From assembly GCA_024763495.1 (NCBI GenBank), contig JANTFJ010000001.1:1-33581 (forward strand): DNA of 33,581 nt, given 5' to 3'. Shown here in pieces: positions 12,814 through 33,484 of this stretch. The translations under genes and the position numbers were made by a program. The notes below the pieces were generated by a model, which saw nothing but the letters and a program-made list of their open reading frames with translations, ran no database searches and had not been told where the DNA came from. Origin of the DNA: Desulfobulbaceae bacterium (GTDB lineage Bacteria; Desulfobacterota; Desulfobulbia; Desulfobulbales; SURF-16). The first letter of the stretch is position 1. Each line of letters opens with the position of its first letter.

Positions 12814-13191
12814 CTAATTATCTTCATTATCCTCTTGGTAATTGACTAATTCTATAATCGCCATGGGCGCAGCATCGCCGGTACGGTTACCAGTTCTTAT
12901 TATTCTGGTATACCCACCATTACGATCCATATAACTATCTTTAATTTCATCAAAAAGCTTAGCTACTATTCTCTTATCCTGTATATATGATAATGCCTGA
13001 CGTCGAGCATGAAGATCTCCACGCTTAGCTAAAGTTATCATTTTATCAGCTACCCGCCGCAACTCCTTTGCCTTAGGTGTAGTAGTAACAATCCGCTCAT
13101 GCTCGAACAGGGACGTAACCATATTACGAAGCATGGCCCTTTTATGTGATGTTGTACGGCCAAGTCTTTTTCCTGCTACTCTATGCCTCAT
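12814..13191 (-). CDS. rplQ: 50S ribosomal protein L17
   Basis: 125 aa, [24 protein letters not shown]... Last gene of the alpha operon. Confidence 0.95.
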
Positions 13192-13208
13192 CTTTCCTAA
13201 ACCTCGCT

Positions 13209-14282
13209 TTATTCCTGCTCTTCTGTAGACGGAACTTCAGGTGGTTCCCAATTATCAAGTTTGAGCCCCAGATTCAAATCCATTTCCGCAAGAAGTTGTT
13301 TTATTTCGTTCAAGGACTTACGACCAAAATTTTTGGTTTTAAGCATTTCAGCTTCAGTCTTCTGTACTAATTCACCAATAAACCTGATATCAGCGTTACG
13401 AAGGCAGTTTGCGGAACGAACAGAAAGTTCAAGATCTTCAACGCCCCGGTAAAGATTTTCATTAAAAGTCTCTTTCTCTACTGTATCCGGGATGACGACT
13501 TCAGGCTCAATAAGGTTCTCATCAAAATTAATAAAAATTGTCAGCTGTTCCTTCAGTATTTTAGCGGCAAAGGCCAAGGCATCTTCAGGCTTGACACTTC
13601 CATCAGTATATATTTCCAGAATTAATTTATCATAATCAGTCTGTTGTCCAACCCGGGCTTGACTGACAGTTGATTTAACCTGTTTAACTGGAGCAAAAGT
13701 TGCGTCAATAGGAATAACCCCAACCGGCAAATCATCACTTTTATGCTTCTCTGCCGGAGAATAACCTTTACCCCACTGAACCTCAAGTTCTGCAACAAAA
13801 CTACCTTCACTGCCGGTAATAGTACAAATATGCTGCTCAGGGTTCATAATCTCGACAGAAGAACCCGTAATTATATCAGCAGCAGTAACTGAACCTGGTT
13901 TTGTTTTATTAATCTGAACTATCTTTGAATCAGCACCGTTAAGTTTTAATCGTACCTCTTTAAGATTAAGGATAATTTCTGTAACATCTTCAAGAACACC
14001 TGATAATGTAGAAAATTCGTGTAAAGCATTGTCAATCTTAACCGAAGTAATTGCCGCACCCTGTATTGAAGAAATCAATATTCTCCGCAGACAATTTCCT
14101 AAAGTAGTAGCATACCCACGCTCTAATGGCTGACATACGAATTTACCATATTTTTCACTATGTTTTTCAGAATCAACCTCAACTCTCTCAGGGACGATAA
14201 GTTCTCGCCAATTGCGATAAAAAGGGGAACCTTCTTCTATTAGTGACTCCTGAGTCATATTTTCTATACTATCGTTCATCAA
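13209..14282 (-). CDS. rpoA: DNA-directed RNA polymerase alpha subunit
   Basis: N-terminal-domain motif [29 protein letters not shown] and C-terminal-domain motif [23 protein letters not shown]. True start may be the internal ATG at 14258. Confidence 0.93.
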
Positions 14283-14285
14283 ATC

Positions 14286-14915
14286 CTACTTGGAGTAAAG
14301 TTCAACAATCAACTGCTCTTGGATCGGCATGGTTATTTCCTGGCGATCAGGAAGAGACTTGACTGTAGCTTTATAATTATCTTGATCAAGTTCCAGCCAG
14401 GATGGAACACCACGGCGGGCAACAGCAGCAAGGCTTTCGTTAATTACCCCGATTTTACGACTTTTTTCCTTTAGAGTAATAACATCATTAACTGATATTT
14501 GAAAAGAAGGAATATTAACTTTTCTTCCATTGACCAGAAAATGATTATGTTTAATCATCTGTCTTGCCTGACTCCTCGAATTTAAAAATCCAAGGCGATA
14601 AAGAGTATTATCAAAGCGTCTTTCAAGCAATTGCAAAAGATTTTCGCCAGTTACACCCTTATGCATCTCAGCTCTTTCAAAATATTTCCTGAACTGGCCT
14701 TCAAGCATACCATAAATTCTTCTGACCTTCTGCTTCTCACGTAACTGAATCGCATAATCAGATACCTTACGCATTCTTGCCTGGCCATGCTGACCGGGAG
14801 CAAATGAACGTCGCTCAAAGGCACACTTGTCAGAATAACATCTGTCACCTTTAAGAAACAATTTAAGTTTTTCCCTGCGGCATTGTCTACAAACGGCTCC
14901 TCTATATCTTGCCAA
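14286..14915 (-). CDS. rpsD: 30S ribosomal protein S4
   Basis: 209 aa, [26 protein letters not shown]... TTG start with GGAGGAG RBS. Confidence 0.95.
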
Positions 14916-14973
14916 TTTGCTCCTCCATTATACACATGCAGTATATATTACATAGTACTTGATAAAAATAATT

Positions 14974-15096
14974 ACAACTATTCTGCTGCATCTCATCTTC
15001 GTCCATTTGGGCCTGCTCAAGTAGCATCAGTACATTTCGCTGCCCTGAATAAACAGATAGCAAAACTTCGTGCCTACGGTACATCTGAATAGATAC
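14974..15096. repeat. Degenerate MITE relic in the rpsK-rpsD spacer
   Basis: Decayed E-like ends acaactattctgctgca and acatctgaatagatac. The interior (catctcatcttcgtccatttgggcctgctcaagtagca) resembles C/B. No duplication detected. Confidence 0.45.
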
Positions 15097-15144
15097 AAAA
15101 CAGTAAGTCTACCAGTTTTTTTTCGTCCCTACGGAATCAAATAA

Positions 15145-15534
15145 TTAAACTCTTCTTCTTTTCGGCGGTTTACAGCCATTATGAGGCATAGGAGTGACGT
15201 CACATATACGGCTCACATCAATACCTGACGTCTGAATGGCACGAATTGCGGCCTCTCGACCCGGCCCAGGCCCCTTTACCATAACCTCAACTTTTCTCAA
15301 ACCCTGATCCATGGCTCGTTTTGAAGCATCCTCAACTGCGTTTTGAGCAGCAAAAGGAGTACTTTTTCTTGATCCCTTAAAACCAAGAGAGCCGGCACTG
15401 GACCAAGCTATAACATTACCCTGCTTATCAGAAAATGTAATAAGGGTATTATTAAATGTAGACTTAATATGAGCTATACCTTCGGGTATATTTTTCTTAA
15501 TTTTACGCTTTGTCCGCAACTTAGGTTTTGCCAT
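15145..15534 (-). CDS. rpsK: 30S ribosomal protein S11
   Basis: 129 aa; [18 protein letters not shown]...[13 protein letters not shown]. Confidence 0.95.
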
Positions 15535-15592
15535 CTTATTTTCACCCTATCACAATTTTATCGACCGATAGTCTGCCAACGATAAATCAATC

Positions 15593-15764
15593 GTAACTAT
15601 TCAGCTGCAATTCATACGGTCACGATCAGGTTGTCTCACATAGCACCGGCATGCTGTGTGCCCGTCAGATCACGAAAATCTTCAGCACCCTGCAACCACT
15701 TACAAATGCAGCGGGTTGCATACATTTAGGCGCTTACCTCATGAATAGTTACAAAAATAGTTAC
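15593..15764. repeat. Hybrid-ended MITE in the rpsM-rpsK spacer
   Basis: E-type left end gtaactattcagctgc, FH-arm-like interior, inverted FH left end gcgcttacctcatgaatagttac. The terminal 12-mer atagttacaaaa is tandemly duplicated (15745-15768). Confidence 0.6.
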
Positions 15765-15769
15765 AAAAA

Positions 15770-16138
15770 CTATTTCCTTTTTACTGCTGCACCACGACGG
15801 GGACCTTTTCTTGTCCGAGCATTGGTCTTGGTTCGCTGACCATGGCAGGGTAGACTACGACGATGTCGAATGCCTCTATAACATCCTAAATCCATCAATC
15901 TTTTAATATCCATACCAACTTCTCGCCGCCTATCACCCTCTACTGAATATTTTTCATCTATAATATTTCGTATCCGAGCAATATCCTGATCTGTAAGCTC
16001 ATCACTGCTTGTCTCATATTTAAGCTCAGCCTCTTCAAGAATCTTTCGGGAAGTAGTGCGACCGATACCATAAATGTAAGTGAGAGCAATTTCTATATGT
16101 TTATTTTTAGGCAAATCTACTCCAGCTATACGTGCCAA
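15770..16138 (-). CDS. rpsM: 30S ribosomal protein S13
   Basis: 122 aa, [26 protein letters not shown]... Confidence 0.95.
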
Positions 16139-16239
16139 GTTATTCCTCCCATAAGAATTCTAATGGCTGAGGCATCAAGTAAAAACATAAAATAAGACAC
16201 ATGGTAATTACCGTTTTCACTTGCGACCTTAATTAAAAC

Positions 16240-16413
16240 GTAACTATTCACGTAGGGGCGAAAAACTGCCCAAACCACCGACCTGTAACTGTTCAGATGT
16301 GCTTTAGCTGTGCATGATAAGGCTGGCACCCATACTACGGGCATAAACTTCGCATACTAATGCTATGTAAGACAGACTTATCGCGTGCAGATGAAGTGCA
16401 GCTGATTAGTTAC
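16240..16413 (+). mobile_element. E-family MITE
   Basis: Ends gtaactattcacgtagg and gtgcagctgattagttac. Flanks ATTAAAAC (16232-39) and ATTAAAAA (16414-21) match 7/8. Relatives at 17985-18162 and, inverted, at about 33179-33353. Confidence 0.8.
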
Positions 16414-16515
16414 ATTAAAAATTACTTTAGTGCTTTACTACAGAATATTCGTCAAAAAAACAACAAAATTAAAAAAATTTATAACTATTAAAGATAGGGG
16501 TGAAAGAAAAGCCCT

Positions 16516-16803
16516 GCTGAACGATTACTAACAGTTCAATGTGCTTTATCAATTGTCCATTCAGGCTGGCGCAACATACTAGGAGGCTGTCCGAGAATGC
16601 CCTTTTACCCCAACTCTGTGTTATTTTGAAAAAATAATGCTCGCAATATCAACTATATGGCTGTGCTTATTTTTGCAAAATGCCTTGATTTGAGAAAAAA
16701 TGTCTATTCTAAGTCAAAATCACCGGCAAAATTGAAACAACGGTGAATCCCTTACAGTTACAGAGTAGTCACAGCCTGGGGGTGTAGATTATTGAGTAAT
16801 GTC
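16516..16803. repeat. Mosaic: E fragment, family G copy, and truncated family D (sense to rpmJ)
   Basis: 16516-16580 is E-interior-like. 16581-16712 is a G copy (aggaggctgtccgagaat...ctattct). 16741-16803 read on the - strand gives gacattactcaataatctacaccc...taactgtaagggattca, which is the D 5' part, starting 2 nt after the rpmJ stop. Confidence 0.55.
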
Positions 16804-16805
16804 TT

Positions 16806-16919
16806 TCAACCCTGCCGTTGTTTATGTTTCTTTATCTTACAGGTAACGCGAATCACTCCTTTACGTTTAAACACCCGGCAATCACTGCATATTTTCTTTA
16901 CAGATGAACGTACCTTCAT
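16806..16919 (-). CDS. rpmJ: 50S ribosomal protein L36 (zinc-binding C-x2-C...C...H form)
   Basis: Found by hand below the ORF-track cutoff. Reverse complement reads [41 protein letters not shown] is present about 9 nt upstream. Position between infA and rpsM is as expected. Confidence 0.9.
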
Positions 16920-16934
16920 AATATAATCCTGATT

Positions 16935-17084
16935 ATAACTACTGACTGGGGTAAGCGCCTTAATTGCGCTAAACACCGTAATTGTAACTGGTTACAGGTG
17001 CCGTAGGCTTTAGCCCGGCTCAACATATTAATCATACGTGAGCCGAACTGATCACGGAATGATCTGGTGTCCTGTAAGCAGTTA
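16935..17084 (+). mobile_element. FH-family MITE in the infA-rpmJ spacer
   Basis: Ends ataactactgactggggtaagcgcc and gtgtcctgtaagcagttac. Perfect duplication TCCTGATT (16927-34 and 17085-92). Confidence 0.9.
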
Positions 17085-17113
17085 CTCCTGATTGACATTT
17101 TAATTTAAAGTAA

Positions 17114-17341
17114 CTACTTCCTTCCACGAGAACGAAAAGTTATTCTTCCCCTGGTCAAATCATATGGCGACAACTCAACTGTTACTTGATCGCCAGGAAG
17201 AATTTTAATAAAATGCATTCTCATTTTACCTGAGATATGAGCCAAAACTTTATGACCATTTTCAAGTTCAACTCGGAACATCGCATTAGGCAATGGTTCT
17301 ATAATTTTTCCTTCTACCTGAATGGCATCTTCTTTTGGCAT
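17114..17341 (-). CDS. infA: Translation initiation factor IF-1
   Basis: 75 aa, [51 protein letters not shown]... AAGGAAGG RBS. Confidence 0.95.
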
Positions 17342-17645
17342 ATCTTTTATTAGTCCTTCCTTTTTAAACGATTATCGTTTTTGTGATATAAATTTAATAA
17401 GGTTAAAGAGACTATCCCTTTAGTCCGTTAAATCTCGTATCAACCTTTAACTCGAACACTAAGCAAAATTAACAATTTGTAAATTAAAGAATTTTATCTT
17501 ATAACCTATTTTTACTATTTCTGCTTTTGTTTTTTTCTAACTATTCAACTTAAAGAAAAATGACGAAAAGCTGGATACATATACCTGGCGAGGATGTACG
17601 AACAAAGCTTAACTACAACAAAATCAGGCAAATTGAACCATTTAT

Positions 17646-17768
17646 GTAAATACTCATGGGGTAACGTCCTAACTTCGCTAACCCCTGTAATTGTAACTGG
17701 TTACAGGGTGCTAACCATACGTAAGCCTAACTGATCGCGGAAATATGCGGTGCCCTGTGAGCAGTTAC
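17646..17768 (+). mobile_element. FH-family MITE
   Basis: Ends gtaaatactcatggggtaacg and ggtgccctgtgagcagttac. Perfect duplication CCATTTAT (17638-45 and 17769-76). Confidence 0.9.
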
Positions 17769-17801
17769 CCATTTATTTGCTAATTTTCTTTATATTTTAT
17801 A

Positions 17802-17973
17802 GTAACTACTCACAGGGCACAGGATCCGTAGTATCGGAAACTCGCTTACCTGTTCATTCAGGAGTGCGAAGTGTAGTTGTGCCATCGAGCAGGCCTACAT
17901 GGGCGAAGAGGTAAGCACCCTGAAAAACAGGGGGCATAAACTAAGACTCCGTGTGGTTCAGCTGAATAGTTAC
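17802..17973. repeat. Hybrid-ended MITE (inverted FH arm on the left, E end on the right)
   Basis: Left end gtaactactcacagggcac, right end ggttcagctgaatagttac. Interior resembles inverted C/B and carries the gtaagcaccctgaaaaacaggg module. The flanks do not match. Confidence 0.6.
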
Positions 17974-17984
17974 TCATTTTTTAT

Positions 17985-18162
17985 GTAACTATTCAGGTAG
18001 CGGGCAAAAAACTGCCGCAACAACCGCACCGACCTGTAACTGATCAGAGGTAAGCGAACAAAGTGAGAATCCGTGTGCTTTAGCTGTGCGTAAGGCTGGC
18101 GCAGCATATTAATATGTAGACAGCCTGATCCTGCGCAGATGAAGTGCAACTGAACAGTTATC
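17985..18162 (+). mobile_element. E-family MITE next to the map stop codon
   Basis: Ends gtaactattcaggtagcggg and gtgcaactgaacagttatc. Flanks TTTTTTAT (17977-84) and ATTTTTAT (18163-70) match 7/8, but they are low complexity and therefore weak evidence. Confidence 0.65.
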
Positions 18163-18175
18163 ATTTTTATTTAAA

Positions 18176-18937
18176 TTAATCACGAGAACTCAAGACTACA
18201 GGATCGCCTTCGGTGACAGCTACTGAATGTTCAAAATGAGCGGAAGGCCTTCCATCTCTGGTAACAACGGTCCAACCATCCTTAAGTACCTTAACATCAT
18301 GAGTACCCATATTTATCATTGGTTCAATCGCCAGAACCATTCCCGGCAAAATTCTTGCAGTTCTTTTCTTACGATGATAGTTAGGTATTTCCGGTGCTTC
18401 ATGTAGATTTGATCCTATTCCATGGCCAACAAACTTTCTGACAACCGAATAACCAAATTTCTCAACATGTTTCTGCACTGCAGTAGATATATCATCTATC
18501 CGCCTTCCAACTCGAACCTGTTCAATACCTTTATAAAGAGATTCTTCAGTAACCTGTAAAAGTAATTTTACCTCATTACTGATATTGCCTACAGGTACAG
18601 TAATGGCGGAATCTCCAAAATAACCCTTAAAACATACACCAAAATCGATACTTATAATATCGCCATCATGCAATATAATTTTTCTGGAAGGAATACCATG
18701 AACAACCTGCTCATTAATCGACACGCATAAACTGCCGGGAAAACCTCGATATCCTTTAAAAGCAGGAATCGAATCACATTTACGGCAATTATCTTCTGCC
18801 CATCTATCAAGCTGCCAGGTTGATATGCCAGGTTCAATCCTTGATTCAAGCATTTTTAAGGTTCCAGCAACAATCTGATTTGCCTGAAACATAATGTCAA
18901 TTTCGGCGCTGGATTTAAGAATAATTGGCTGGGACAT
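18176..18937 (-). CDS. map: Methionine aminopeptidase, type I
   Basis: 253 aa with the conserved M24A layout (VHGIP, DIISIDFG, GHGIG, LAIEPM, HFEHS). Confidence 0.93.
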   Translation of the reverse strand: MSQPIILKSSAEIDIMFQANQIVAGTLKMLESRIEPGISTWQLDRWAEDNCRKCDSIPAFKGYRGFPGSLCVSINEQVVHGIPSRKIILHDGDIISIDFGVCFKGYFGDSAITVPVGNISNEVKLLLQVTEESLYKGIEQVRVGRRIDDISTAVQKHVEKFGYSVVRKFVGHGIGSNLHEAPEIPNYHRKKRTARILPGMVLAIEPMINMGTHDVKVLKDGWTVVTRDGRPSAHFEHSVAVTEGDPVVLSSRD

Positions 18938-19009
18938 AAAATATGTGTGCCTTACAGCTTAACTTCAACTAACCCACAAAAAGTGGAAGTGGACTTAGAA
19001 TCTTTAGGA

Positions 19010-19039
19010 CTCTTTTCAGTTCCCCCTTGAGGGGTGTAA
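19010..19039. repeat. 30-nt module K (small GC hairpin ccccttgagggg)
   Basis: ctcttttcagttcccccttgaggggtgtaa is 29/30 identical to 25646-25675, which lies inside the composite MITE at 25521-25832. Confidence 0.55.
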
Positions 19040-19184
19040 GTGCCTTGGGGTAACTCGCTGTAAATAGTTTCAAAATTACCTCTTCAGTTTCTTGTTTTTT
19101 GTTACAGCTTCTCAGGAGTAAGGCACTAATAACGAAAAATATTTCGTACAACTAAAATGAATAATTGGGGAGTATCTAATACCT

Positions 19185-19359
19185 GTAAGCGTTCACCAGC
19201 ACCTCATCTTTGCCAATTTGAGGCTGCTTGAATAGCACCTTATGCTGCGCAGGCACAAGTAAGCGAGTAACACGAGACTCCGAATGAAATATCTAAGGCA
19301 CGGGTAATCGCTTAGAGATTTAAATGTTTCAAAGATTTGCTCCCTGGTGAGCCCCTAAC
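19185..19359 (+). mobile_element. C/B-family MITE abutting the secY stop codon
   Basis: Left TIR gtaagcgttcaccag; right end is degenerate (ctggtgagcccctaac). Flanks TAATACCT (19177-84) and TACTACCT (19360-67) match 7/8. The right copy contains the secY stop. Confidence 0.8.
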
Positions 19360-19361
19360 TA

Positions 19362-20678
19362 CTACCTTCTACCCTTAATCCTTCCACTCTTCAGGAAACC
19401 ATCATAATTCTGCGATACAGTAAGAGATTCCATTTGAGATAATGTATCAATTGCAACACCGACAACAATCAATAGCGCTGTACCACCAAAATAGAAAGGA
19501 ACATTCAACTTATTGATTAATATTGTCGGAAGAACGCATACAGCACTGACGTATATAGCACCAATCACAGTAAGGCGAACCATTACCTTATCAATAAATT
19601 CTGCTGTTCGCTTTCCAGGCCTGATACCGGGAATAAAGCCTCCATGTTTTTTTAAATTCTCAGCCACATCTACTGGATTAAATGTAACGGCAGTATAAAA
19701 AAAACAGAAGAAAACAATCATTCCGACATAAAGCAGGGTATGAAGCGGACTTCCCCAACTTAGAACACTGGAAACCTGCTGAATCCAGTCAATTTTAATA
19801 AAACCGCCAATAGTTGCAGGAAACATCATAATAGATGATGCAAAGATTGGAGGAATAACCCCTGACATATTGATTTTCAATGGCAGATGAGACCTTTGTC
19901 CTCCGTACATCTGTCTGCCGACCATTCGCTTTGCATATTGAATTGGAATGCGCCGTTGAGCAGTTTCAAAGAAAATAATCAAGGCAATTACTCCGGCCAT
20001 CAATACCAGGAGAATTGGGAGAAATATTACGGTCATCTCTCCAGAACTAATGAGCTGATAAGTATTAACAATTGCTGCTGGCATCCGGGCAACAATACCT
20101 GCAAAGATTATAAGTGATATCCCATTGCCTATACCACGTTCAGTCATCTGCTCACCAAGCCACATGATAAAGGCAGTACCCGCAGTCAAGGTCAGAACAG
20201 TCATCAGGCGAAAACTCCAGCCTGGAGATATTACAATCATTTCACTACCGGTTGGAGCGGCCATACCTTCCAGGCCGATACTGATAAACAATCCCTGAAT
20301 AAGACTCAGGCCTACAGTAGCATATCGGGTATACTGGGTAATTTTACGTCTACCAGCCTCACCTTCTTTAGATAATGCTTCAAGCTGAGGAATAACAACT
20401 GTCAACAACTGAAATATAATCGATGCACTGATATAGGGCATAATGCCCAAAGCAAATATTGAAAAGTTCTCCAATGCACCGCCAGAGAACATATTAAACA
20501 TGCCGAAAATAGTTCCGGCATTTTTTTCAAAAAAAGCGGCCAGGGCTTCACCGTTTATTCCAGGAGTAGGAATTTGAACGCCGGCCCTGTAGACTGCAAG
20601 CATCAAGAGAGTAAAAATAATACGTTTCCGAAGCTCAGGAACGTTTGCTGCATTCTGCAGTCCACCCGATGTAGCCAT
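19362..20678 (-). CDS. secY: Preprotein translocase subunit SecY
   Basis: 438 aa, polytopic; [12 protein letters not shown] and [15 protein letters not shown] motifs. The stop codon lies inside the target duplication of the adjacent MITE. Confidence 0.95.
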
Positions 20679-20682
20679 CTAT

Positions 20683-21123
20683 TTATTCCTCAAAGCTGCC
20701 ACCAGCAGCTTCGATTTTTTTTCGAGCAGATTCACTCAGCTTATCTACTGCAACAGTAAATGATTTGGAAACCTCTCCATCGCCAAGTATTTTTATCTTT
20801 TGATCCTGATTTGATATTAAGCCGACAGCAACTAAAGTTTCACGATCAATCCGGCTACCGCTATCAAAACGATCAAGATCTTTTACATTAATAATAGAAT
20901 ACTCTTTCTTAAATAGATTAGTAAATCCCCGTTTTGGCAAACGACGCTGCAAAGGCATCTGTCCGCCCTCAAAACCTGGTTTAACCCCACTGCCTGAACG
21001 AGATTTATAACCATTATGACCTCGTCCCGATGTTTTTCCATGACCCGAACCTCGACCCCGTCCAAGTCTTTTTTTCTGTTTTCTAGAACCTGGATGGGGA
21101 GACAAATTGCTTAAATTAATCAT
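20683..21123 (-). CDS. rplO: 50S ribosomal protein L15
   Basis: 146 aa; Gly/Arg-rich N-terminus ([18 protein letters not shown]). Confidence 0.95.
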
Positions 21124-21305
21124 GACAATTCCTCCATACTAACCAAATGCTTAACCTTGTTAAACATTCCCCTGATTTCAGGAGTATCCTTGCGGATAAC
21201 AGTTTTATTCATTTTAGTAAGGCCCAGGCCTATTACTGTTGCACGAATTTTCTTAGTGCTGCCTATTACACTCTTTTTCAAGGTCATCTTAAGCTCATTA
21301 GCCAT
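21120..21305 (-). CDS. rpmD: 50S ribosomal protein L30
   Basis: 61 aa; 4-nt overlap with rplO; expected position. Confidence 0.9.
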
Positions 21306-24352: not shown

Positions 24353-24360
24353 ACTTATAG

Positions 24361-24699: not shown

Positions 24700-25033
24700 A
24701 AAAGCCTCTCTATCTTACAGCCCGTATATAATAGCTGCCCTGAATAAGCAATATATAAAATAAAAAATATATTTTTTCAGGTGCATAAATTACTTATTGA
24801 GCTTTCATCGTAAGTATTCGTTTTTTAGTTAAAAATATAATTATCTGTACACGGTTAGCTTAGGATCACAACTTAAATATCTTCCGTGGTTTTCTTATCC
24901 CGGCCTGGAGAGGTACTCTAATCACACAGGTCTTGAGTAAAAATAAAAAAATCAGCTAATTATTTAACATTCAATGATTTTCAAGGTTATGAGTTTTAAG
25001 GGGTGTGAGTCGTTACCAGTGAGTTATAATTAA

Positions 25034-25402
25034 CTATAAAACCTCAGGAGCCAATGAAACAATTTTCATAAAACCAAGAGATCTTAATTCTCTGGCAACA
25101 GGGCCAAATATCCGGGTTCCGACCGGTTCACCGGTTCCAGACAACACAACGGCTGAATTATCATCAAATTTTACCATTGTATCATCACTCCTTCTAACCT
25201 CTTTAGCTGTCCGGACAATTACAGCGCGATGAATCTCGCCCTTCTTAACCTTCGCGTTTGGAATTGCTTCCTTGACCGTTACAACAATAACATCTCCAAT
25301 ACTGGCATATCTTCTTTTACTTCCGCCAAGAACCTTAATACATAAAAGTTTTTTAGCGCCTGAGTTATCGGCTACATTAAGTACTGATTCGGTTTGTATC
25401 AT
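25034..25402 (-). CDS. rplN: 50S ribosomal protein L14
   Basis: 122 aa, [28 protein letters not shown]... Confidence 0.95.
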
Positions 25403-25520
25403 TTTATCACCAGCTTTACTTCAATAATTTAATATTTATTTGATAATTATTCAGCCATACAAAATATGAATATAGTGATTATGTATTACATAAAAATGCA
25501 GGCTTTACTGTAGAACTATC

Positions 25521-25832
25521 GTAACTACTCATGGGTGGTAAGCTCCTAGCCCAGATAAACTGGAAGAGAAATTAAGGCTCTGGATAAGTCCCTTAACAGT
25601 AGATGCAAGTTGTTTATTTCAAAGAAATTTTTCAATTTCTTGCCACTCTTTTCAGTACCCCCTTGAGGGGTGTAAAAAGCACCAAAATTAATTCTAAGGG
25701 ACTAATGGTTACAAATCTCTGTATTTTTAAGTGGTTACAGGTGCCGTAGATTTTTGTCATCAGCCCGGTGCTGCCAAGTAATACGTAAAACATGCTGATG
25801 GCGGTAATATGCGGTGCCCTGTGAGCAGTTAC
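25521..25832 (+). mobile_element. 312-bp composite FH MITE with passenger modules
   Basis: Ends gtaactactcatgggtggtaagc and ggtgccctgtgagcagttac. Perfect duplication GAACTATC (25513-20 and 25833-40). The interior is an inverted copy of the 10712-10866 passenger plus module K. Confidence 0.9.
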
Positions 25833-25923
25833 GAACTATCTATATATAATATCGCTGAACATTTACATATCAATTACATATATTGAAGAATTATGTCAAT
25901 CTATGAATCCCTATATAATATTT

Positions 25924-26193
25924 TTATACTGCTTTCTCGGTAATTTCCCTTAAACGCCAACGCTTATTCTTACTTAAAGGACGGCATTCTTCGATCATTA
26001 CCTTATCACCAATATTACATAAGTTATCGGGATCAGCAGCCATATACTTCAAATGACGTTTTATATATTTTCCATACAATTTGTGGCGAACAAGATTCTT
26101 AATCTGGACGACAATAGTCTTGTCCATCTTGTTACTGACGACAATTCCGAATTGAGACTTCTTCTTTTTTAACTCACCCATCAATTTTCCCAA
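25924..26193 (-). CDS. rpsQ: 30S ribosomal protein S17
   Basis: 89 aa; GIVVSNKMDKTIVVQIKNLVRHKLYGKYIKR. The start may be the ATG 12 nt downstream. Confidence 0.93.
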   Translation of the reverse strand: MGKLMGELKKKKSQFGIVVSNKMDKTIVVQIKNLVRHKLYGKYIKRHLKYMAADPDNLCNIGDKVMIEECRPLSKNKRWRLREITEKAV

Positions 26194-26232
26194 GGATATT
26201 ATTAGTTATAAAATATGTTAAAACTCTAATGA

Positions 26233-26424
26233 TTATACCTGTTGTTTTTCGTTTGCAACAGTCATCAGCCTGGCAATATCTCGTTTCATTTCCTTGAGCC
26301 TGGCGGTATTATCAAGAGGACGAATACTGTGTTGAAATTTTAATCTGTTAAACTCGTCTTTCAAGTCATCTTCTTTAGCTGAAAGCTCAGCAACAGTTAA
26401 TTTACGAAATTCTTCTGCCTTCAT
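26233..26424 (-). CDS. rpmC: 50S ribosomal protein L29
   Basis: 63 aa; [31 protein letters not shown]. Overlaps the rplP stop. Confidence 0.93.
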
Positions 26425-26837
26425 ATTGTTGCGTCCTTACTTATAACTTTTGTCTCAAAGGGCAGTTTGTTACCAGCAAGAGTCAAAGCCTTCAAGGCAA
26501 GGTTTTCCTCAACGCCTGTAAGTTCATATAAAATTCTACCCGGCTTAACTATGGCTACCCAATACTCAGGACTACCTTTTCCTTTACCCATTCTGGTTTC
26601 AGCAGGTTTTTTGGTCATTGGCTTATCAGGGAAAACCCTGATCCACATCTTTCCACCACGTTTAATTGTCCTGTTGATAGTAATACGGGCAGCTTCAATC
26701 TGTTGGCTGGTCATTTTACCGCATTGAGTTGCCTTGAGGGCATAATCACCAAAACTAATCTTTGAGCCTCGATAAGCAGCACCCTTCATCCTGCCCTTCA
26801 TTTTTTTTCTATATTTTACTTTTTTAGGACTAAGCAT
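26421..26837 (-). CDS. rplP: 50S ribosomal protein L16
   Basis: 138 aa, [36 protein letters not shown]... Confidence 0.95.
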
Positions 26838-26943
26838 ATTATTTCCTCATCATCAATATAATTAAAGATGATAAATTTATCTCTACCTATCATGATTATA
26901 CAAAATATGATTATTTATATGTCAATGCTCGTATATGAAAACC

Positions 26944-27114
26944 GTAAGCGTTCACCAGCACCTCATCTTTGCCCATTTGAGCCTGCTTGAATAGCACCAG
27001 CACCAGTATGCAGCGCAGGAACAGGTAAGCGAGGAACGAGACTCCGAATGAACAAATTGGTAAACGCTTAGAGTCTTAAATGTTGCAAAGAATTACTCCC
27101 TGGTGAACGGTTAC
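26944..27114 (+). mobile_element. C/B-family MITE, best-preserved copy
   Basis: 15-bp TIRs gtaagcgttcaccag and ctggtgaacggttac. Perfect duplication TGAAAACC (26936-43 and 27115-22). Confidence 0.92.
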
Positions 27115-27232
27115 TGAAAACCAACGAGGAAAGGTCAACTACTACATATCAAAATTAGCTTATTTTCTGTTCCCTGTATAATAAAAGAGAAACGGAATAA
27201 AAAAACTGGTCTACAGAGGTGTTAAGGGAAAA

Positions 27233-27883
27233 TTAAAGAGTCAATCTCTTTTCAGTCTCCGGAAGAACTTCACCCTTGAATATCCAGACCTTTACACCAA
27301 TGATACCATAAGTAGTCTTAGCCTCAGCAAAGCCATAATCTATATCTGCCCGGAGAGTATGCAATGGAACCCGTCCCTCACGATACCACTCACGACGGGC
27401 CATTTCTGCGCCTCCTAAACGACCAGAGCAGGAAATTTTAACACCTTTTGCACCAAACTTCAAGGCGATATTTATCGCCTTTTTCATTGCCCGACGAAAT
27501 GCTATCCGCCGAACTAACTGTAAGGCAACATTTTCGGCTACGAGCTGGGCATCGGCCTCAGGTCGTCTTACCTCCTGAATATCTATCAGGCATTTTTTAT
27601 GGGTGAATTTATCAAGATCCTGTTTCAAAGCTTCAATCTCAATACCCTTTTTCCCAATAACAATTCCGGGACGGGCAGTATGAAGTTTAATCTTTATTTT
27701 TTCACCTGTTCTAGCGATATTAATTTTTGAAATACCAGCATGAAAAAGTCTTTTCTTCAGATACTTCCTGATTTTCTGATCTTCAAGCAAATAATCAACA
27801 TAATTTTTATCAGCATACCAGGTTGACTCCCAGGTCCTGACAATATTGAGACGTAATCCTATGGGATTGACTTTCTGGCCCAA
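27233..27883 (-). CDS. rpsC: 30S ribosomal protein S3
   Basis: 216 aa; (M)[22 protein letters not shown] start 7 nt after GGAGG. Confidence 0.95.
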
Positions 27884-28078
27884 ATCATTCCTCCGTTAAG
27901 TGACTTGCACTATGTTGACTGTCTTTAATACAGCCTGACGTTATGATCATGACAACAAGATATTCAATAATGCATTATATATTCGCATTTCAATCAAATT
28001 ATTGTGCTTTGATCCCTTTTAGTGCCTTACTCCAGATCAAACACGAAGGCACTTATCCAATAAAAGCGTACTAATTTC

Positions 28079-28234
28079 GTAACTGCTCCAGAGCACCGAA
28101 TTTTTCCACCATCAGCCTGGCTTACGTATAGCTAATAGGCGACACCAGACCGATGACGAAAATCTCCGGCACCCTGTAAACAGTTACAGTTCAGTGTTTT
28201 TCACGATCATAAATTTTAAGGTGTGAGCAGTTAC
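28079..28234. mobile_element. FH-arm MITE (the same arm type at both ends)
   Basis: Ends gtaactgctccagagcaccg and ggtgtgagcagttac, with an internal ...ccctgtaaacagttac at 28187. Flanks CTAATTTC (28071-78) and CTGATTTC (28235-42) match 7/8. Confidence 0.8.
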
Positions 28235-28331
28235 CTGATTTCTTCTAGTTCAACAGATTAGTCTATCACTTCATAACTATTCAACGAGAGAATAATTTTT
28301 CTAAAATCGAACAGTTATGTAATATCAAAAA

Positions 28332-28667
28332 CTAAATATTCTCATCAAGTACTACGGTAATATGACTTGATCTTTTTAATATCTTTGTTGCCCGTCCCAT
28401 AGCTCTGGGCCTGATCCTTTTAAGCATCGGAGCCCCATCAACAAATACTTTCTTAACATACAAAGTATCTACATCAATTGAATCATTTTGACTTGCATTG
28501 GCAACTGCTGACTCAATAATTTTTCGTAAAATACGTGCCCCTTTTTTAGGCATGAATCGTAATTTATTGAGGGCCTGTTCGACGTTCTCCCCACGGACGA
28601 GGTCAGATACCAACCTCGCTTTCTGTGGTGAAATACGAATATGTCTGGCAACAGCTCTGGCTTCCAT
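28332..28667 (-). CDS. rplV: 50S ribosomal protein L22
   Basis: 111 aa, [26 protein letters not shown]... Confidence 0.95.
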
Positions 28668-28782
28668 AGCTTTTTAACTCCTGGCTTAACCGGATAAAAG
28701 TAAGAGAAGTAATAATATTATATATTTTCTCTTCTATATTTAAACTTTTATCGCTTAACGCATTTTCATTAATCGAAGATTT

Positions 28783-28936
28783 GTAACCGTTCACCGGGGC
28801 TTCTTGTTTACTTATAACTCCAGCCTGTAGGCATTCTCCAGTGTCTTAGATTAAGTTCATTGGAGGTCTCTGTGCTGCATACTGGTGCTTGTAAGCAGGC
28901 CCAGATGAACAAAAATGAGGTTCTGGTGAAACTTAC
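28783..28936 (-). mobile_element. C/B-family MITE, inverted, diverged
   Basis: Ends gtaaccgttcaccgggg and ttctggtgaaacttac. Perfect duplication GAAGATTT (28775-82 and 28937-44). Confidence 0.9.
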
Positions 28937-29039
28937 GAAGATTTCATCAGGCAGGGACGGCTGGCTGAACATCAGCTTCCCAGGCCCATCATATATCTAT
29001 TACATATAGAGCCCCTTTGCCAGTGATATCAATTATCCT

Positions 29040-29315
29040 TTATTTCGATCCCTTCCTGTCACCTGCATGACTATAAAATGTTCTGGTTGGAGCATATTCA
29101 CCCATTTTTTGTCCAACCATATTTTCAGAGACAAATACAGGGATAAATTTTCTACCGTTATGGACAGCAAAGGTAAGTCCGACCATTTCAGGTAATATAT
29201 CAGAACGCCTTGACCAGGTTTTTATAACCTTTCGTGAACCGGTTTCCCTGGCGTGATTAACCTTTTTCATTAAATGCTCGTCAACAAACGGGCCTTTTTT
29301 TACCGAACGTCCCAC
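29040..29315 (-). CDS. rpsS: 30S ribosomal protein S19
   Basis: 91 aa from GTG 29315, (M)[18 protein letters not shown]..., with GGGAGAGG just upstream. The ORF-track ATG at 29339 adds 8 atypical residues. Confidence 0.9.
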
Positions 29316-29399
29316 AATCCTCTCCCAAATAAATAACATTTTTTGATATTCAGAGCTTATCTACAGAATCGCAATTCTTTTTAAAACTGAACTATGATC

Positions 29400-29554
29400 G
29401 TAACTACTCACGGGGGGTAGGCACCTAATATTCGCTACCCCCTAATTTATAACTGTTTACAGGTGCCGGAGATTTCCGCGATCAGACTGGCACAGCATAC
29501 TGGTGCTGTGTAAGACAGACAGTTCGCGGGAAAATTCGGTGCCCGAGCAGTTAC
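29400..29554 (+). mobile_element. FH-family MITE abutting the rplB stop codon
   Basis: Ends gtaactactcacggggggtaggc and cggtgcccgagcagttac. Perfect duplication CTATGATC (29392-99 and 29555-62). The right copy contains the rplB stop. Confidence 0.92.
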
Positions 29555-30376
29555 CTATGATCTTCTCTTAACAATATCCTTATCCGAAGATTTCCTTTTT
29601 CTGGTCTTGTATCCTTTCGTCGGTACTCCCCAAGGGGTACAGGGATGACGTCCGCCAGAACTCTTACCTTCACCACCACCCATTGGATGATCGTGAGGAT
29701 TCATGGCAACACCGCGTACACTTGGCCTTTTACCTTTCCACCGATTTCGACCTGCTTTGCCGAGTTTGCGGCTTTCGTGTTCGATATTACCAATCTGGCC
29801 AATACATGCCCGGCATTTACGGTGAAACCTCCGAACTTCTCCGGAAGGAAGCTTTACCAGGACATAATTTCCTTCTTTGGCCATCAGTTGAGCTGAGACA
29901 CCTGCACTTCGTACCATCTGAGCACCTTTGCCGATTCTCATTTCAACATTATGAATAATACTTCCCAAAGGGATATTACCCATCGGCAGACAGTTACCGA
30001 TTTTAATATCAACATTTTCTCCTGCCTCAACTATATCACCGACCTTTATCCCCATAGGAGATAAAATATACCTTTTTTCGCCATCAGCGTAGAAAAGCAA
30101 TGCAATATTGGCAGAACGGTTAGGATCATATTCAATAGAGGCGATCTTGGCGGGAATATCAACTTTATCCCTTTTAAAATCAATAACTCTATATTTTCTC
30201 TTATGACCACCACCGATATGCCTGGCAGTAATTCTACCATAATTATTTCTCCCTCCAGACTTACGAAGGGACTTAACCAATTTTTTTTCAGGTTTGTTTT
30301 TTGACAATTCGGGATTGTATATAGTTACTAATGTTCTTCTTCCCGGTGATGTCGGTTTATAGGTCTTTGTTGCCAT
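29555..30376 (-). CDS. rplB: 50S ribosomal protein L2
   Basis: 273 aa; [15 protein letters not shown]...[14 protein letters not shown]. The stop codon lies inside the target duplication of the adjacent MITE. Confidence 0.95.
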
Positions 30377-30524
30377 TGCAAACCCCGATTATATTATTTG
30401 CGTAAAGCTTATCCGTGTCTTACCTTCATTAATTTTACTTTTTCCAGGAGCATAAAATTTGCTCCCAAAGACAAAATCACAAAGGATGAAGGACTCTAAT
30501 TAATAACGATCAAGTTTAAATGCA

Positions 30525-30550
30525 CGTCTTACGCTCTAGCTGAATAGTTA
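30525..30550 (+). repeat. Solo E-type right end in the rplW-rplB spacer
   Basis: acgtcttacgctctagctgaatagttac-like terminus with no detectable partner end. Confidence 0.45.
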
Positions 30551-30626
30551 CTTAAAATTCAATTATTGAATCAATGTCAAATCCTGTCAGCTTAACATTA
30601 CAAGTTCTCTAAATTGAATAATAATT

Positions 30627-30917
30627 CTAAATTTCTTCCAGAAAATCTACACTATGACCCTCAACCAGAGAGACAATAGCCTTTTTCCAATCCGATCTCC
30701 GACCAGCATAACGCCCCAGCCGTTTTTTCTTACCATGCATATTAGCAGTCCGGACTTTTATTACTTCTACATTAAACAACGCCTCAACAGCCTGTTTAAT
30801 CTCAATCTTATTAGCTCTAGGATCAACCTTAAAAACCAGATGGTTGTATTCTTCCTGAAGAGTCATGCCCTTTTCAGTCAAGCATGGTTTTTTTATTATC
30901 CCATAAATAGATTTCAT
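30627..30917 (-). CDS. rplW: 50S ribosomal protein L23
   Basis: 96 aa; IIKKPCLTEKGMTLQEEYNHLVFKVDPRANKIEIKQAVE. 4-nt overlap with rplD. Confidence 0.95.
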   Translation of the reverse strand: MKSIYGIIKKPCLTEKGMTLQEEYNHLVFKVDPRANKIEIKQAVEALFNVEVIKVRTANMHGKKKRLGRYAGRRSDWKKAIVSLVEGHSVDFLEEI

Positions 30918-31537
30918 GGCTGCAACCTCTCTTCAATTTTATCCAGACTAGGCTGAACTATAATCAATTTCTTATACAGCAGGATATCATAAACATTAAT
31001 ACCAATTACAGGAAGAACCTTATATCCCGGGACATTACGTGATGACCTTTCAAGTTTTTCGTCATGTTCCGGAACAACAATCAGGCAATTCTCAACTTTG
31101 AGATTATCCATAATATCAACAAATTTTCTGGTCTTAAATTCCTCAAGTTGAATTTCGTCAATTATGAGAATATTATCAGCTGAATTACGTGAACTCAGTG
31201 CCATACGCAATCCAATCCTTCTGACTTTCTTAGGAAGATTGAAACTGTAGTCACGGGGTTTAGGGCCAAAAACAGTTCCACCGCCCCGCCACACAGGTGA
31301 CCTTCTATTTCCCGCTCTTGCTCGTCCGGTACCTTTTTGCCGATATGGCTTTGCGCCGCTACCTCTAACTTCTGCTCTAGTCTTGGTACAGGCTGATCCC
31401 TGTCGCCGCTTAGCCAACTGCATGCGCACCACATCATGAAGCAAGTGAGAATCAACATCAACCCCAAAGATTGAATCTTGCAAATCTATCTCACCAACCT
31501 TTTCGTTACTGGTGTTATAAATATTGGTCATTGCCAT
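30914..31537 (-). CDS. rplD: 50S ribosomal protein L4
   Basis: 207 aa from ATG 31537 (GAGGGG about 8 nt upstream), [19 protein letters not shown]... The 20-codon extension in the ORF track runs into a family-D repeat. Confidence 0.92.
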
Positions 31538-31575
31538 TTTTCGGCCCCTCACAATTATGGCCTGTTTGGTATTTT

Positions 31576-31714
31576 GTAAGCGCTCGATGAACATCACCCT
31601 GCGATGTACCGATGTATTATCGCAGGCCGTGAAGCATGTACATAACAGCGTCCCTGAACCCCTTACAGTTATGGGTAGTTGTCGACGCTTGGGTGTACTT
31701 TATTGAACACTATC
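31576..31714 (-). mobile_element. Family D MITE, sense to the rplC-rplD transcript
   Basis: Ends gtaagcgctcgatgaac and ctttattgaacactatc. Flanks GGTATTTT (31568-75) and AGTATGTT (31715-22) match 6/8. Lies 38 nt upstream of the rplD ATG. Confidence 0.7.
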
Positions 31715-31882
31715 AGTATGTTAACTCACTAACACACTAAGGTGAAGAAACTATCAGACTTTTCAGGACTCTTTTATACTCCTTTCTCTACTAATCTATT
31801 TTTAAGTGAGCCCTTATATAATATATCCTGAGTTTCTTATTTTGGACTGAAATTCAAACGTAAGATACTAATGTAGAAACTA

Positions 31883-32512
31883 TTACTTTGTATAAATAGT
31901 CAGCATCCCTTGTTTTGCTCCGGGAACCCCGCCTTTAACCAGAATAACATTATCCTGTTCCCTGATATCAAGGATGATAACATTTTTTTTGGTTACATTA
32001 TTATTACCCATACGGCCAGGCATTTTTTTACCTTTGATAACCCTGCTTGGCCAGGCGCTGCAACCTATCGATCCCGGAGCCCGGTGAAACATGGAGCCAT
32101 GAGTTTTCCTACCGCCATGGAAACCATGACGCTTAATAACACCCTGGAATCCACGTCCCTTTGTTATGCCGGTAATATCAACTATATCGCCGACCTTAAA
32201 CAAATCAGTTAGAACTATCTCCTGACCAATTTCATATTGTTCAGGATCATCAACCCGGAACTCCCTGACATGGTAAAAACCACCCTTACCTGCTTTATTA
32301 AAATGGCCAAGCATAGGCTTGTTAATACGCGACTCTTTTTTTGAGGCAAATCCAACCTGAACAGCTTTATAGCCGTCATTTTCATCAGTTTTTTTCTGCA
32401 GCACTATACATGGACCGGCCTCAATGACCGTAACTCCGAATGCTGATCCTTCCTCAGAATAAAACCGGGTCATTCCAATTTTTTTCCCCAATATTCCAAT
32501 AGTCTTAGGCAT
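31883..32512 (-). CDS. rplC: 50S ribosomal protein L3
   Basis: 209 aa, MPKTIGILGKKIGMTRFYSEEG... Confidence 0.95.
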   Translation of the reverse strand: MPKTIGILGKKIGMTRFYSEEGSAFGVTVIEAGPCIVLQKKTDENDGYKAVQVGFASKKESRINKPMLGHFNKAGKGGFYHVREFRVDDPEQYEIGQEIVLTDLFKVGDIVDITGITKGRGFQGVIKRHGFHGGRKTHGSMFHRAPGSIGCSAWPSRVIKGKKMPGRMGNNNVTKKNVIILDIREQDNVILVKGGVPGAKQGMLTIYTK

Positions 32513-32603
32513 TGTTTAACCCAACCTCTGTAAATTCTTAAAAATTTCAATTCAGCTCTTTGCTCCGTCAAAAATTTAACGGAGTTCAAAGCGTTTCTTC
32601 GTG

Positions 32604-32915
32604 TTACAGCTTGATCTCTACATCAACTCCTGCTGAAAGTTCAAGTTTCATTAAGGCATCGATTGTCTGTTGAGTAGGTTCGAGAATATCCAGCATGCGA
32701 CGATGCGTTCTCATCTCAAACTGCTCCCTTGATTTTTTATCAACGTGAGGAGAACGAAGAACACAATATTTATTAATCTTAGTGGGCAACGGAATCGGTC
32801 CCGCAATAATAGCACCAGTCTGTTTAGCTGTCTCAACAATCTCTGCTGTTGACAAATCTATCTGCTTATGATCGTACCCTCTCAATTTGATACGAATTTT
32901 CTGCGTCTGAATCAT
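32604..32915 (-). CDS. rpsJ: 30S ribosomal protein S10
   Basis: 103 aa from ATG 32915 (AAGGA about 8 nt upstream), [22 protein letters not shown]... The 22-codon extension in the ORF track is repeat-derived. Confidence 0.93.
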
Positions 32916-32929
32916 GTAATTTTCCTTTT

Positions 32930-32950
32930 GTAACCGTTCACCGGGCCGAC
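32930..32950 (-). repeat. Solo C/B end fragment 15 nt upstream of the rpsJ start
   Basis: gtaaccgttcaccgggccgac matches the left end of the inverted C/B copy at 28783. Confidence 0.5.
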
Positions 32951-32959
32951 ATATTTTTT

Positions 32960-33114
32960 GTAAGCGCTCCATGAACACCAACCTGCACGGGCTTCACAAC
33001 CCCTGCAATATACCGATGTATTATCACAGGGCATGGAGTACGTATATGGCGGCATCACTGAACCCCTTATAGTTAGGGGTTGTCGCCTCCTGGATGTACT
33101 TTAGAGCGCTACCC
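32960..33114 (-). mobile_element. Family D MITE, sense to the tuf-rpsJ transcript
   Basis: Ends gtaagcgctccatgaac and ctttagagcgctaccc. Perfect duplication TATTTTTT (32952-59 and 33115-22), although the sequence is low complexity. Confidence 0.8.
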
Positions 33115-33131
33115 TATTTTTTAAAATTAAT

Positions 33132-33353
33132 GTAACTACTCATGGGGTAAGCACCTAATGATTGCAAATCTAACTATTTATAACTATCCAGCTGCACTTC
33201 ATCTGGGGGCGATAATGCTGTCTTATATAGCATTCTGCGCCAGGCTTATCACACACATCTAAAGCACACGGAGTCTCACTTCGTTCGCTTAACTCTGAAT
33301 AATTACTAAACAGTGGTTGTGACAGTTTTTCGCCCCCGACCTGAATCGGTAAT
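33132..33353. repeat. Hybrid: FH left end fused to an inverted E-family element
   Basis: gtaactactcatggggtaagcacctaatgattgcaaatc..., then ataactatccagctgcacttcatctg...cagtttttcgcccccgacctgaatcggtaat. The second part is colinear with the reverse complement of 16240-16413. Confidence 0.6.
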
Positions 33354-33484
33354 AAAAAATTATAAACATTGCCTGCAAGTGTTTACCGGCATTTCAAATA
33401 TGTTTATTTTAATCGTTAAGACATAAATCCCATATACTGGAATGTCAAAATGGACGATAATTGATACAGGCAGACACTTACGGC

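Follow-up and report, generated by a model that had tools for sequence, protein, structure and literature searches.

Few gene arrays of bacteria are as conserved or as highly expressed as the S10-spc-alpha genes, whose tight spacing is usually ascribed to translational coupling and autoregulation. Here we examined a 33,581-nt stretch of DNA from an uncultured Desulfobulbaceae bacterium of the sulfate-reducer type (contig JANTFJ010000001.1; hereafter the window) in which many spacers of this ribosomal cluster run to several hundred nucleotides, which raises the question of what fills them and whether the operons are still read as such. We found that the inserts are transposable elements of the miniature inverted-repeat kind (MITEs), and we put at about 78% the probability that the spacers are bloated by non-autonomous derivatives of the IS66 family that are near-neutral, with the operons read through; the elements are probably tolerated passenger DNA.

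Mobile repeats in the ribosomal spacers

The genes were re-derived from a list of open reading frames (ORFs) with translations, and start codons were refined before spacers were measured. The cluster itself is as follows:

12814..33581, minus strand: tuf (3' end)-S10-spc-alpha cluster, with 30 intact genes from rpsJ to rplQ and 30 junctions, of which 17 hold element-derived DNA (from ORFs, translations, the spacer table and pN/pS, the ratio of nonsynonymous to synonymous differences)

All 30 genes are full length (tuf stop at 33485; rpsJ 32915-32604; rplQ 13191-12814) and lie on the minus strand, and they follow the canonical colinear S10-spc-alpha order from tuf to rplQ, as a preliminary description of this DNA had proposed. 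The 16 long spacers that it listed were all reproduced at the lengths quoted (range 194-834 nt): tuf-rpsJ 569, rplC-rplD 345, rplW-rplB 250, rplB-rpsS 239 and rpsS-rplV 372 in the S10 part, then rplV-rpsC 448, rpsC-rplP 395, rpsQ-rplN 521, rplN-rplX 334/337, rplX-rplE 195, secY-map 424, map-infA 834, infA-rpmJ 194, rpmJ-rpsM 667, rpsM-rpsK 235 and rpsK-rpsD 229 nt. The four overlapping pairs were likewise recovered (rplD/rplW, rplP/rpmC and rpmD/rplO by 4 nt each, rplE/rpsZ by 8 nt); the rpsD/rpoA gap is 3 or 6 nt, according to which start codon is taken, and the junctions that are neither long nor overlapping measure 4-101 nt. Together the spacers make up 6,726 of the 20,671 nt of the cluster.

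All-against-all blastn defined at least four families of repeats (A-D), with 3-10 copies each in 33.6 kb, and ~47% of the non-coding bases of the window match elsewhere in the window, as against 6% of the coding bases, which belong to paralogous genes. The units are 48-324 nt long and the ORFs across them are short chance frames only; their terminal inverted repeats (TIRs) begin GTAACT or GTAAGCG, and their target-site duplications (TSDs) are 8 bp long and of variable, AT-rich sequence. In size, TIRs, TSDs and dispersed copies the inserts are MITEs. Family A consists of a 110-nt palindromic core, A1 (GTAACTGCTCACAGGGCACCG...CGGCACCCTGTAAnCAGTTAC), and a 48-nt unit, A2, which meet at a fixed point; A2 has an outer end of its own (GTAACTACTCAyGGGG). 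Family D is laid out as A is, with a ~45-nt unit and a ~125-nt core; family B has the ends GTAAGCGTTCACCAGC...GAACGGTTAC and family C the ends GTAAGCGCTyCAA...TTGAGCGCTATC.

For comparison, we graded relatives (Desulfobulbaceae-type Thermodesulfobacteriota) by their SecY homologues, fetched their operons and tabulated the same junctions. SecY identity to the window is 88% for L005, 94% for L002, 96% for L003/L004 and 99% for L007, the last of which is ~92% identical in DNA with a synonymous difference (pS) of 0.24. Base-level alignment of the rplX-rplE spacer shows a filled site, CTATAAG / T-GTAACTACTCA...AGTAGTTAC / CTATAAG, where L007 has a single CTATAAG, and at infA-rpmJ the filled site AATCAGGA / GTAACTGC...GTAGTTAT / AATCAGGA stands against a single TATCAGGA in L007. 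Clean empty sites were found in three relatives (L007, L003 and L002). The earlier claim that removing an element and one duplication copy restores an ordinary spacer was borne out: rplX-rplE falls to 28 nt (195-159-8; 26-27 nt in L003/L004 and L007), infA-rpmJ to 35 nt (194-151-8; given as 36 before, and 33-37 nt in the same three relatives) and rplB-rpsS to 76 nt (239-155-8).

A detector of intact elements, built on the terminus, inverted ends of 16 nt and a flanking 8-bp repeat, returned 8 in the window and none in the reversed window used as control, indicating that they are not due to chance; it returned 2 each in L002 and L007 and none in L003, L008 or L005. Terminal complementarity in the 8 intact copies is 11-14 of 16 bases. 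At least nine window copies have an 8-bp TSD matching at 7/8 or 8/8 positions, among them CTATGATC (8/8) beside rplB, which manual inspection added to the detector's eight. Downstream of rplQ one insertion is nested in another: an A element of 165 nt, flanked by a duplication of its own (CACAAATG), lies within a 324-nt B element. With insertions also present or absent by turns among the window, L007, L002 and L003, the proposal that mobile repeats inflate the spacers is strongly supported by TIRs, 8-bp TSDs, empty sites, the nested insertion and independent insertions in sister lineages. The elements, given without strand, are:

12362..12685: family B MITE just downstream of rplQ; ends GTAAGTG..GGTTAC; TSD AAATATT 7/8; homologous to other B copies; hosts the nested insertion
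12440..12604: family A MITE nested in B; TSD CACAAATG 8/8
14976..15059: B-like fragment, rpsK-rpsD; blastn matches to other copies and to loci L033, L066, L117 and L124
15593..15752: family A element, rpsM-rpsK; ends GTAACT..AGTTAC; no clear TSD
16240..16413: family D composite MITE, rpmJ-rpsM; TSD ATTAAAA 7/8
16935..17085: family A MITE, infA-rpmJ; TSD TCCTGATT 8/8, which reads AATCAGGA in the operon direction; empty in L007, L003 and L002
17646..17768: family A MITE, internally deleted, map-infA; TSD CCATTTAT 8/8
17802..17973: GTAACT..AGTTAC element, map-infA; no clear TSD
17985..18161: family D composite MITE, map-infA; TSD ~7/8
19185..19358: family B MITE (GTAAGCGTTCACCAGC..) adjoining the secY stop; right end degenerate; matched at 100% identity by the independent assembly L001
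23360..23418: solo 59-nt A2 hairpin unit, rpsZ-rpsH; missing from L007, L003 and L002
24194..24352: family A MITE (A2 + A1), rplX-rplE, 8 nt past the rplX stop; TSD CTTATAG 7/8; empty in L007, L003 and L002; 44-bp hairpin
24697..25033: rplN-rplX spacer, 337 nt vs 71-77 nt in L002 and L005; extra DNA outside the families; terminus-like motif GTAACGACTCAC; 128 nt common to L007
25521..25832: 312-nt A-type composite, rpsQ-rplN; TSD GAACTATC 8/8; second copy at 10622-10894
26944..27114: family B MITE, rpsC-rplP; TIR 14/16 (GTAAGCGTTCACCAGC); TSD TGAAAACC 8/8
28079..28188: A1 core MITE, rplV-rpsC; near-perfect 42-45-bp hairpin, -57.7 kcal/mol over 110 nt
28273..28320: 48-nt mini-palindrome ATAACTATTC..GAACAGTTAT, rplV-rpsC
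28780..28947: B-like degenerate element, rpsS-rplV
29400..29554: family A MITE adjoining the rplB stop; TSD CTATGATC 8/8
30377..30626: rplW-rplB spacer, 250 nt vs 46-110 nt in relatives; solo terminus GTAACTATTCAGC at ~30551; remainder outside the families
31576..31714: family C element (GTAAGCGCTCGATGAAC..), rplC-rplD
32960..33111: family C element, tuf-rpsJ
33126..33185: A2-like unit, tuf-rpsJ
33180..33352: family D element, tuf-rpsJ; degenerate ends
33371..33484: GTAAGTG-type hairpin with a 32-bp helix, right after the tuf stop; L005 has only 11 nt at this junction
5140-5270, 8894-9020 and 12215-12340: the other three of the five family C copies

The long spacers are not ancestral. L005 has spacers of 11-135 nt that sum to 1,317 nt, so that the total in the window is about five-fold larger; single junctions differ more (window vs L005: tuf-rpsJ 569 vs 11 nt, rplC-rplD 345 vs 19, rplB-rpsS 239 vs 15, secY-map 424 vs 12, infA-rpmJ 194 vs 21, rpmJ-rpsM 667 vs 30). 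L002, L003 and L007 are intermediate and have different insertions, L002 measuring mostly 27-228 nt where the junctions of the window are inflated. The preliminary description had named as a check the possibility that related genomes have equally long spacers without repeats; the outcome was the opposite, with relatives short at the inflated junctions. That the length is ancestral, or that native regulatory leaders (autoregulatory RNA, internal promoters) fill the spacers, is hardly credible: three junctions at classical operon boundaries are moderately long in all relatives (map-infA 135-228 nt, rpsC-rplP 108-140, rpsQ-rplN 93-217) and the rpsE-rpmD spacer has a conserved native hairpin, but TIRs and TSDs delimit the extra DNA, no Rfam family matches it, and for its bulk such an origin is refuted by the empty sites in L002, L003, L005 and L007.

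Sister lineages have acquired insertions independently, some of them at the same junctions. In L002 the rpoA-rplQ spacer, only 17 nt long in the window, contains an element; at rpmJ-rpsM a D-type element is present in both L007 and the window with different duplications (GTTATATA vs ATTAAAA); and secY-map is long in both, with unrelated contents. Separately, an A-type element of L007 (8049-8237) stands directly after rpsM, and since its 8-bp duplication GAAAATAG contains the rpsM stop codon TAG, that insertion regenerated the stop codon.

The window is a single 33.6-kb contig of a metagenome-assembled genome (MAG), and related contigs often end inside repeats (L001, L007), as might be expected if repeats had been misjoined into the cluster during short-read assembly. 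We regard such an artefact as extremely improbable. An independent Logan assembly of SRR19843167 (L001) matches window positions 21879-19193 over 2,687 nt at 100% identity, taking in 169 nt of the secY-map spacer and with it most of the B element that follows secY; at each insertion the local target is separately duplicated over 8 bp, a trace that mis-joining would not leave; copies that differ by 10-27% would not collapse in assembly; and other samples and species have insertions of their own in the same operons.

The preliminary description had implied a special status for the ribosomal cluster, and this part did not hold. The first 12.8 kb of the window hold an iorAB-paaK-ACT-livKHMGF-paaK-type cluster, an unrelated transporter operon whose spacers are filled by the same families: the permease/ATPase junction of the liv-type operon is 232 nt vs 1 nt in L008, and the ATPase/ligase junction is 287 nt where L008 has an overlap. 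That the ribosomal cluster stands out as extreme is due mainly to its many short genes, which give it many junctions. As to the neighbouring genes themselves, 798-12206 encodes an iorAB-like 2-oxoacid:ferredoxin oxidoreductase, two PaaK-like CoA ligases, an ACT protein and a Liv-type ABC transporter, an aromatic or branched-chain amino-acid uptake/degradation cluster that is syntenic with L005 and L008.

Element termini and the probable parent transposon

The termini connect the inserts to a known transposon group. ISDge4 of Deinococcus geothermalis, in the ISBst12 group of the IS66 family, encodes a single transposase of 449 aa, has the TIRs GTGACTACTCAGCA and GTAACTGCTCAGCA and makes an 8-bp direct repeat; its activity has been shown by experiment, and its transposition is described as copy-and-paste (PMC12898284). 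Both its TIR and its duplication length agree with the 12-nt end GTAACTRYTCAG and the 8-bp duplication of our elements, and the element ends GTAACTGCTCAC, GTAACTGTTCAG and GTAACTATTCAG of the window fit the ISDge4-TIR-like terminus GTAACTGCTCAG. IS66 inverted repeats start GTAAGCG and are accompanied by 8-bp direct repeats (PMC11946415), and we confirmed ends of this type on the ISCro1 sequence. The ISBst12-group terminus GTAACTRYTCA is that of families A and D, whereas families B (GTAAGCGTTCACCAGC) and C (GTAAGCGCTCGATGAAC) have the classic IS66 terminus GTAAGCG. Judged by their sequences, families A-D would thus be classed as MITEs of the IS66 family, mainly of the ISBst12 group.

The likeness has limits. 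The ISDge4 TIR (GTAACTGCTCAGCA / GTGACTACTCAGCA) fits the GTAACTRYTCAG end of A, D and a cross-phylum class described below, but ISDge4 is autonomous and has a transposase gene, whereas the window elements are non-coding and largely palindromic; A and D moreover add the ~45-nt unit, which brings a second terminus copy, and the host phylum differs. B and C share the GTAAGCG start and the 8-bp duplication with classic IS66 elements (ISCro1, ISPsko1), yet the latter are ~2.5-3 kb long with tnpA, tnpB and tnpC, and their inverted repeats are unlike those of B and C beyond the first 8-9 nt. Copies of A and D (e.g., 24194-24352 and 16240-16413) join the 45-48-nt unit with its GTAACT terminus to a complete palindromic core, so that one end carries two tandem terminus copies, and the duplications flank the whole composite; an internal GTAAGCGCC motif in A2 suggests layered insertions.

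The cross-phylum class emerged from a scan of one genome per species with the pattern GTAACTRNTYA-N80-110-TRANYAGTTAC, which matched at least 118 stretches. The matches listed come from Chloroflexota, Desulfobulbaceae, Gammaproteobacteria, Bacteroidota, Firmicutes, Mariprofundales and others and have unrelated interiors; an exact 8-bp repeat abuts the ends in 42 of 128 elements among them, vs ~0.002 expected. Positions that the pattern leaves free are conserved among the 252 termini listed (position 8 is a pyrimidine in 97%, position 12 a G in 82%) and agree with the ISDge4 TIR. Such GTAACTRYTCAG-ended, MITE-like elements with 8-bp duplications and unrelated, often GC-rich hairpin interiors are thus present in MAGs from many phyla, in places at 2-3 per 8 kb (examples among loci L009-L126 are L061, L020, L047 and L080), which suggests that ISBst12-group transposases mobilise MITEs very widely.

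Several candidates for an autonomous parent were set aside. Terminus pairs 0.45-6 kb apart proved to be neighbouring MITEs, ORFs flanked by termini proved to be housekeeping genes, and tblastn with ISCro1 TnpC returned two unrelated IS66-family genes (L134 and L051), neither with GTAACT ends. Clustering of 759 long ORFs from 118 MITE-bearing loci yielded only kinases, ABC proteins and similar. A 20-mer spanning the A1/A2 junction, searched in metagenomes, had real copies in just one of 83 loci (L154); the rest were chance matches in gut contigs.

REP/BIME and IS200/IS605-type systems produce no target duplication and have no terminal inverted repeats. An origin as REP/BIME-like units moved by RAYT, or as IS200/IS605-type palindrome-associated elements next to TTAC, had been suggested by the GTTAC ends, which contain the IS608 target TTAC, and by the largely palindromic build of the elements. 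It is very improbable, being contradicted by the duplications: exact 8-bp copies of variable AT-rich sequence abut true inverted termini, and these termini match a DDE-type IS66-family element.

Expression of the invaded operons

A purine-rich Shine-Dalgarno sequence is kept before every gene, including all those downstream of inflated spacers, and the cluster genes are under strong purifying selection (pN/pS 0.058 vs L007 and 0.071 vs L002). Terminator-like and promoter-like motifs are no commoner than in shuffled sequence, and no sense-strand terminator-like site lies within any spacer; the spacer RNA (C 17.7%, G 20.4%) has no C-rich, G-poor rut-like stretches for Rho loading; and Rfam covariance models gave no match in the window at the gathering threshold and two chance matches at E<=1. 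Together with the intact Shine-Dalgarno sequences, these negative results favour transcriptional tolerance over the creation of new terminators or promoters.

The preliminary description had predicted stems of 15-25 bp, an underestimate, as intact elements fold into hairpins of ~40-45 bp. In only about half of the spacers does structure exceed that of shuffled controls: against dinucleotide shuffles four are clearly more stable (z -3.5 to -7.6) and the others range from +0.6 to -2.7. Covariation in 13 copies of A1 gave a few compensatory pairs, with a poor alignment and consensus energy.

We propose that a DDE transposase encoded elsewhere in the genome would bind the inverted ends and that copies would insert, copy-and-paste, at staggered 8-bp cuts in AT-rich DNA, giving rise to the 8-bp duplications. 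Insertions would survive only between a stop codon and the next Shine-Dalgarno sequence, so that no element enters an overlapping gene pair and no gene loses its ribosome-binding site; the infA-rpmJ duplication includes the Shine-Dalgarno sequence of rpmJ and would itself regenerate the ribosome-binding site. Since the elements contain no sense-strand U-tract terminators, the operons would still be transcribed through, with each downstream cistron presumably starting translation from its own ribosome-binding site and not by coupling, and the 40-45-bp hairpins would simply be tolerated or be cut by RNase III.

Several points weigh against this reading. Some copies have no recognisable TSD or have decayed ends, and copies within a family are only 73-90% identical, which indicates that the insertions span a long period or stem from diverse source copies and not from one recent burst. 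No cognate transposase or autonomous copy with these ends was found in this one contig and ~200 fetched loci. The extra DNA of rplN-rplX and rplW-rplB matches no other copy in the window, and its origin as elements would follow from length comparison and a terminus-like motif. Finally, the evidence for read-through and neutrality consists of gene conservation and the absence of terminator motifs.

In Geobacter uraniireducens, the MITE called Chunjie lies inside a phosphate-uptake operon and, according to the account of Chen et al. (2008) given in a later article, leaves the operon structure undisturbed (PMC10969869). As described there, Chunjie is a MITE of a related bacterial group with many intergenic copies of variable size and decay (PMC10969869); by that description it resembles our elements, but with one operon insertion as compared to 17 occupied ribosomal junctions here. 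Correia (NEMIS) elements of Neisseria and ERIC/IRU of enterobacteria are abundant hairpin MITE-like repeats that are co-transcribed with neighbouring genes; Correia stems are cut by RNase III and ERIC stems alter mRNA decay (PMC10969869). RNase III processing of the 40-45-bp hairpins of the window is plausible by analogy with Correia elements. Correia elements have a 26-bp TIR and a TA target duplication. The window termini and their 8-bp TSDs differ from these and the termini are also unrelated to those of ERIC, and processing has been demonstrated for Correia and ERIC, whereas the window elements are known from predicted structure; the two are likely a functional analogy for our elements.

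By extension, the elements might have been co-opted as punctuation of ribosomal protein (r-protein) mRNAs, as RNase III sites, stabilising stem-loops or outward promoters, regrouping 30 genes from translationally coupled polycistrons to separately controlled segments. The long helices of intact elements, the four strongly structured spacers and the Correia and ERIC precedents speak for this, as do the shared orientation of five family C copies relative to local transcription and the likeness of the terminus AGTTACA to a -35 hexamer, which one promoter-like match uses. Nevertheless, the same families occur in an unrelated operon and in ordinary intergenic DNA, no insertion is conserved like a functional site, element A is unbiased in orientation (3 vs 4), promoter-like sites are not enriched and covariation support is weak. 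Because sister lineages differ in the junctions occupied, with different or no insertions at the same ones, and many copies are decayed, we consider co-option possible but unlikely. We also think it improbable that RNase III or another nuclease cuts the stems in such a way that three long polycistrons with translational coupling become a dozen or more segments, each stabilised by itself; if it did, this lineage would balance r-protein stoichiometry by a logic unlike that of model bacteria. With respect to orientation, all five family C copies point the same way relative to local transcription, on both strands (p ~0.06), and C differs from the other families in not being a simple palindrome.

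MITEs are already known, as are cases of MITE insertion within operons (Chunjie) and of hairpin processing (Correia, ERIC). New here are families A-D, their ISBst12/IS66 assignment with phylum-spanning look-alikes, and the degree of invasion (17 of 30 core ribosomal junctions, five-fold spacer DNA), with empty-site controls in close relatives; we found no report of MITEs in Desulfobulbaceae or in S10/spc operons in the literature searched. The locus offers a natural experiment on how much structured untranslated RNA ribosomal operons tolerate and whether tight spacing is truly required, and the shared 12-nt end and 8-bp duplication link MITE-like repeats across many phyla to the little-studied ISBst12 group. 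On the practical side, such elements break short-read assemblies and give false 5' gene extensions.

Further features of the cluster

Such extensions are found at two genes, where element DNA upstream of rplD (31537-31597) and rpsJ (32915-32981) prolongs the reading frame at its 5' end, and the two added peptides resemble each other (..FIERLQ.. and ..FMERLQ..); longest-ORF gene calling would misplace both starts. Neither the window nor any of the fetched relatives has adk between secY and map, the local order being secY-map-infA-rpmJ.

Six successive junctions, rpsH-rplF-rplR-rpsE-rpmD-rplO-secY (19362-23319), hold no element in the window, L007, L003/L004 or L002, and rpsJ-rplC (91-96 nt) is likewise free of elements. 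The ancestral lengths of the never-invaded rpsH-to-secY junctions (4-89 nt) are not shorter than those of invaded ones. Both element-free regions may reflect constraint, although this is a post hoc observation. Within the block, the never-invaded rpsE-rpmD spacer has a native hairpin followed by a T-run (GCCGCAA...TGTGGCTTTTT; window 21306-21392, L002 9292-9373, L007 3247-3335) with a variable loop, which, by its sequence, might serve the spc operon as an internal attenuator or terminator-like signal.

Another small family of repeats, with a CCCCCTTGAGGGG hairpin, occurs in the window at 19009-19131 (secY-map) and 25645-25675 (rpsQ-rplN), and also in other Desulfobulbaceae genomes (L002 5705-5769, L097 5682-5774).

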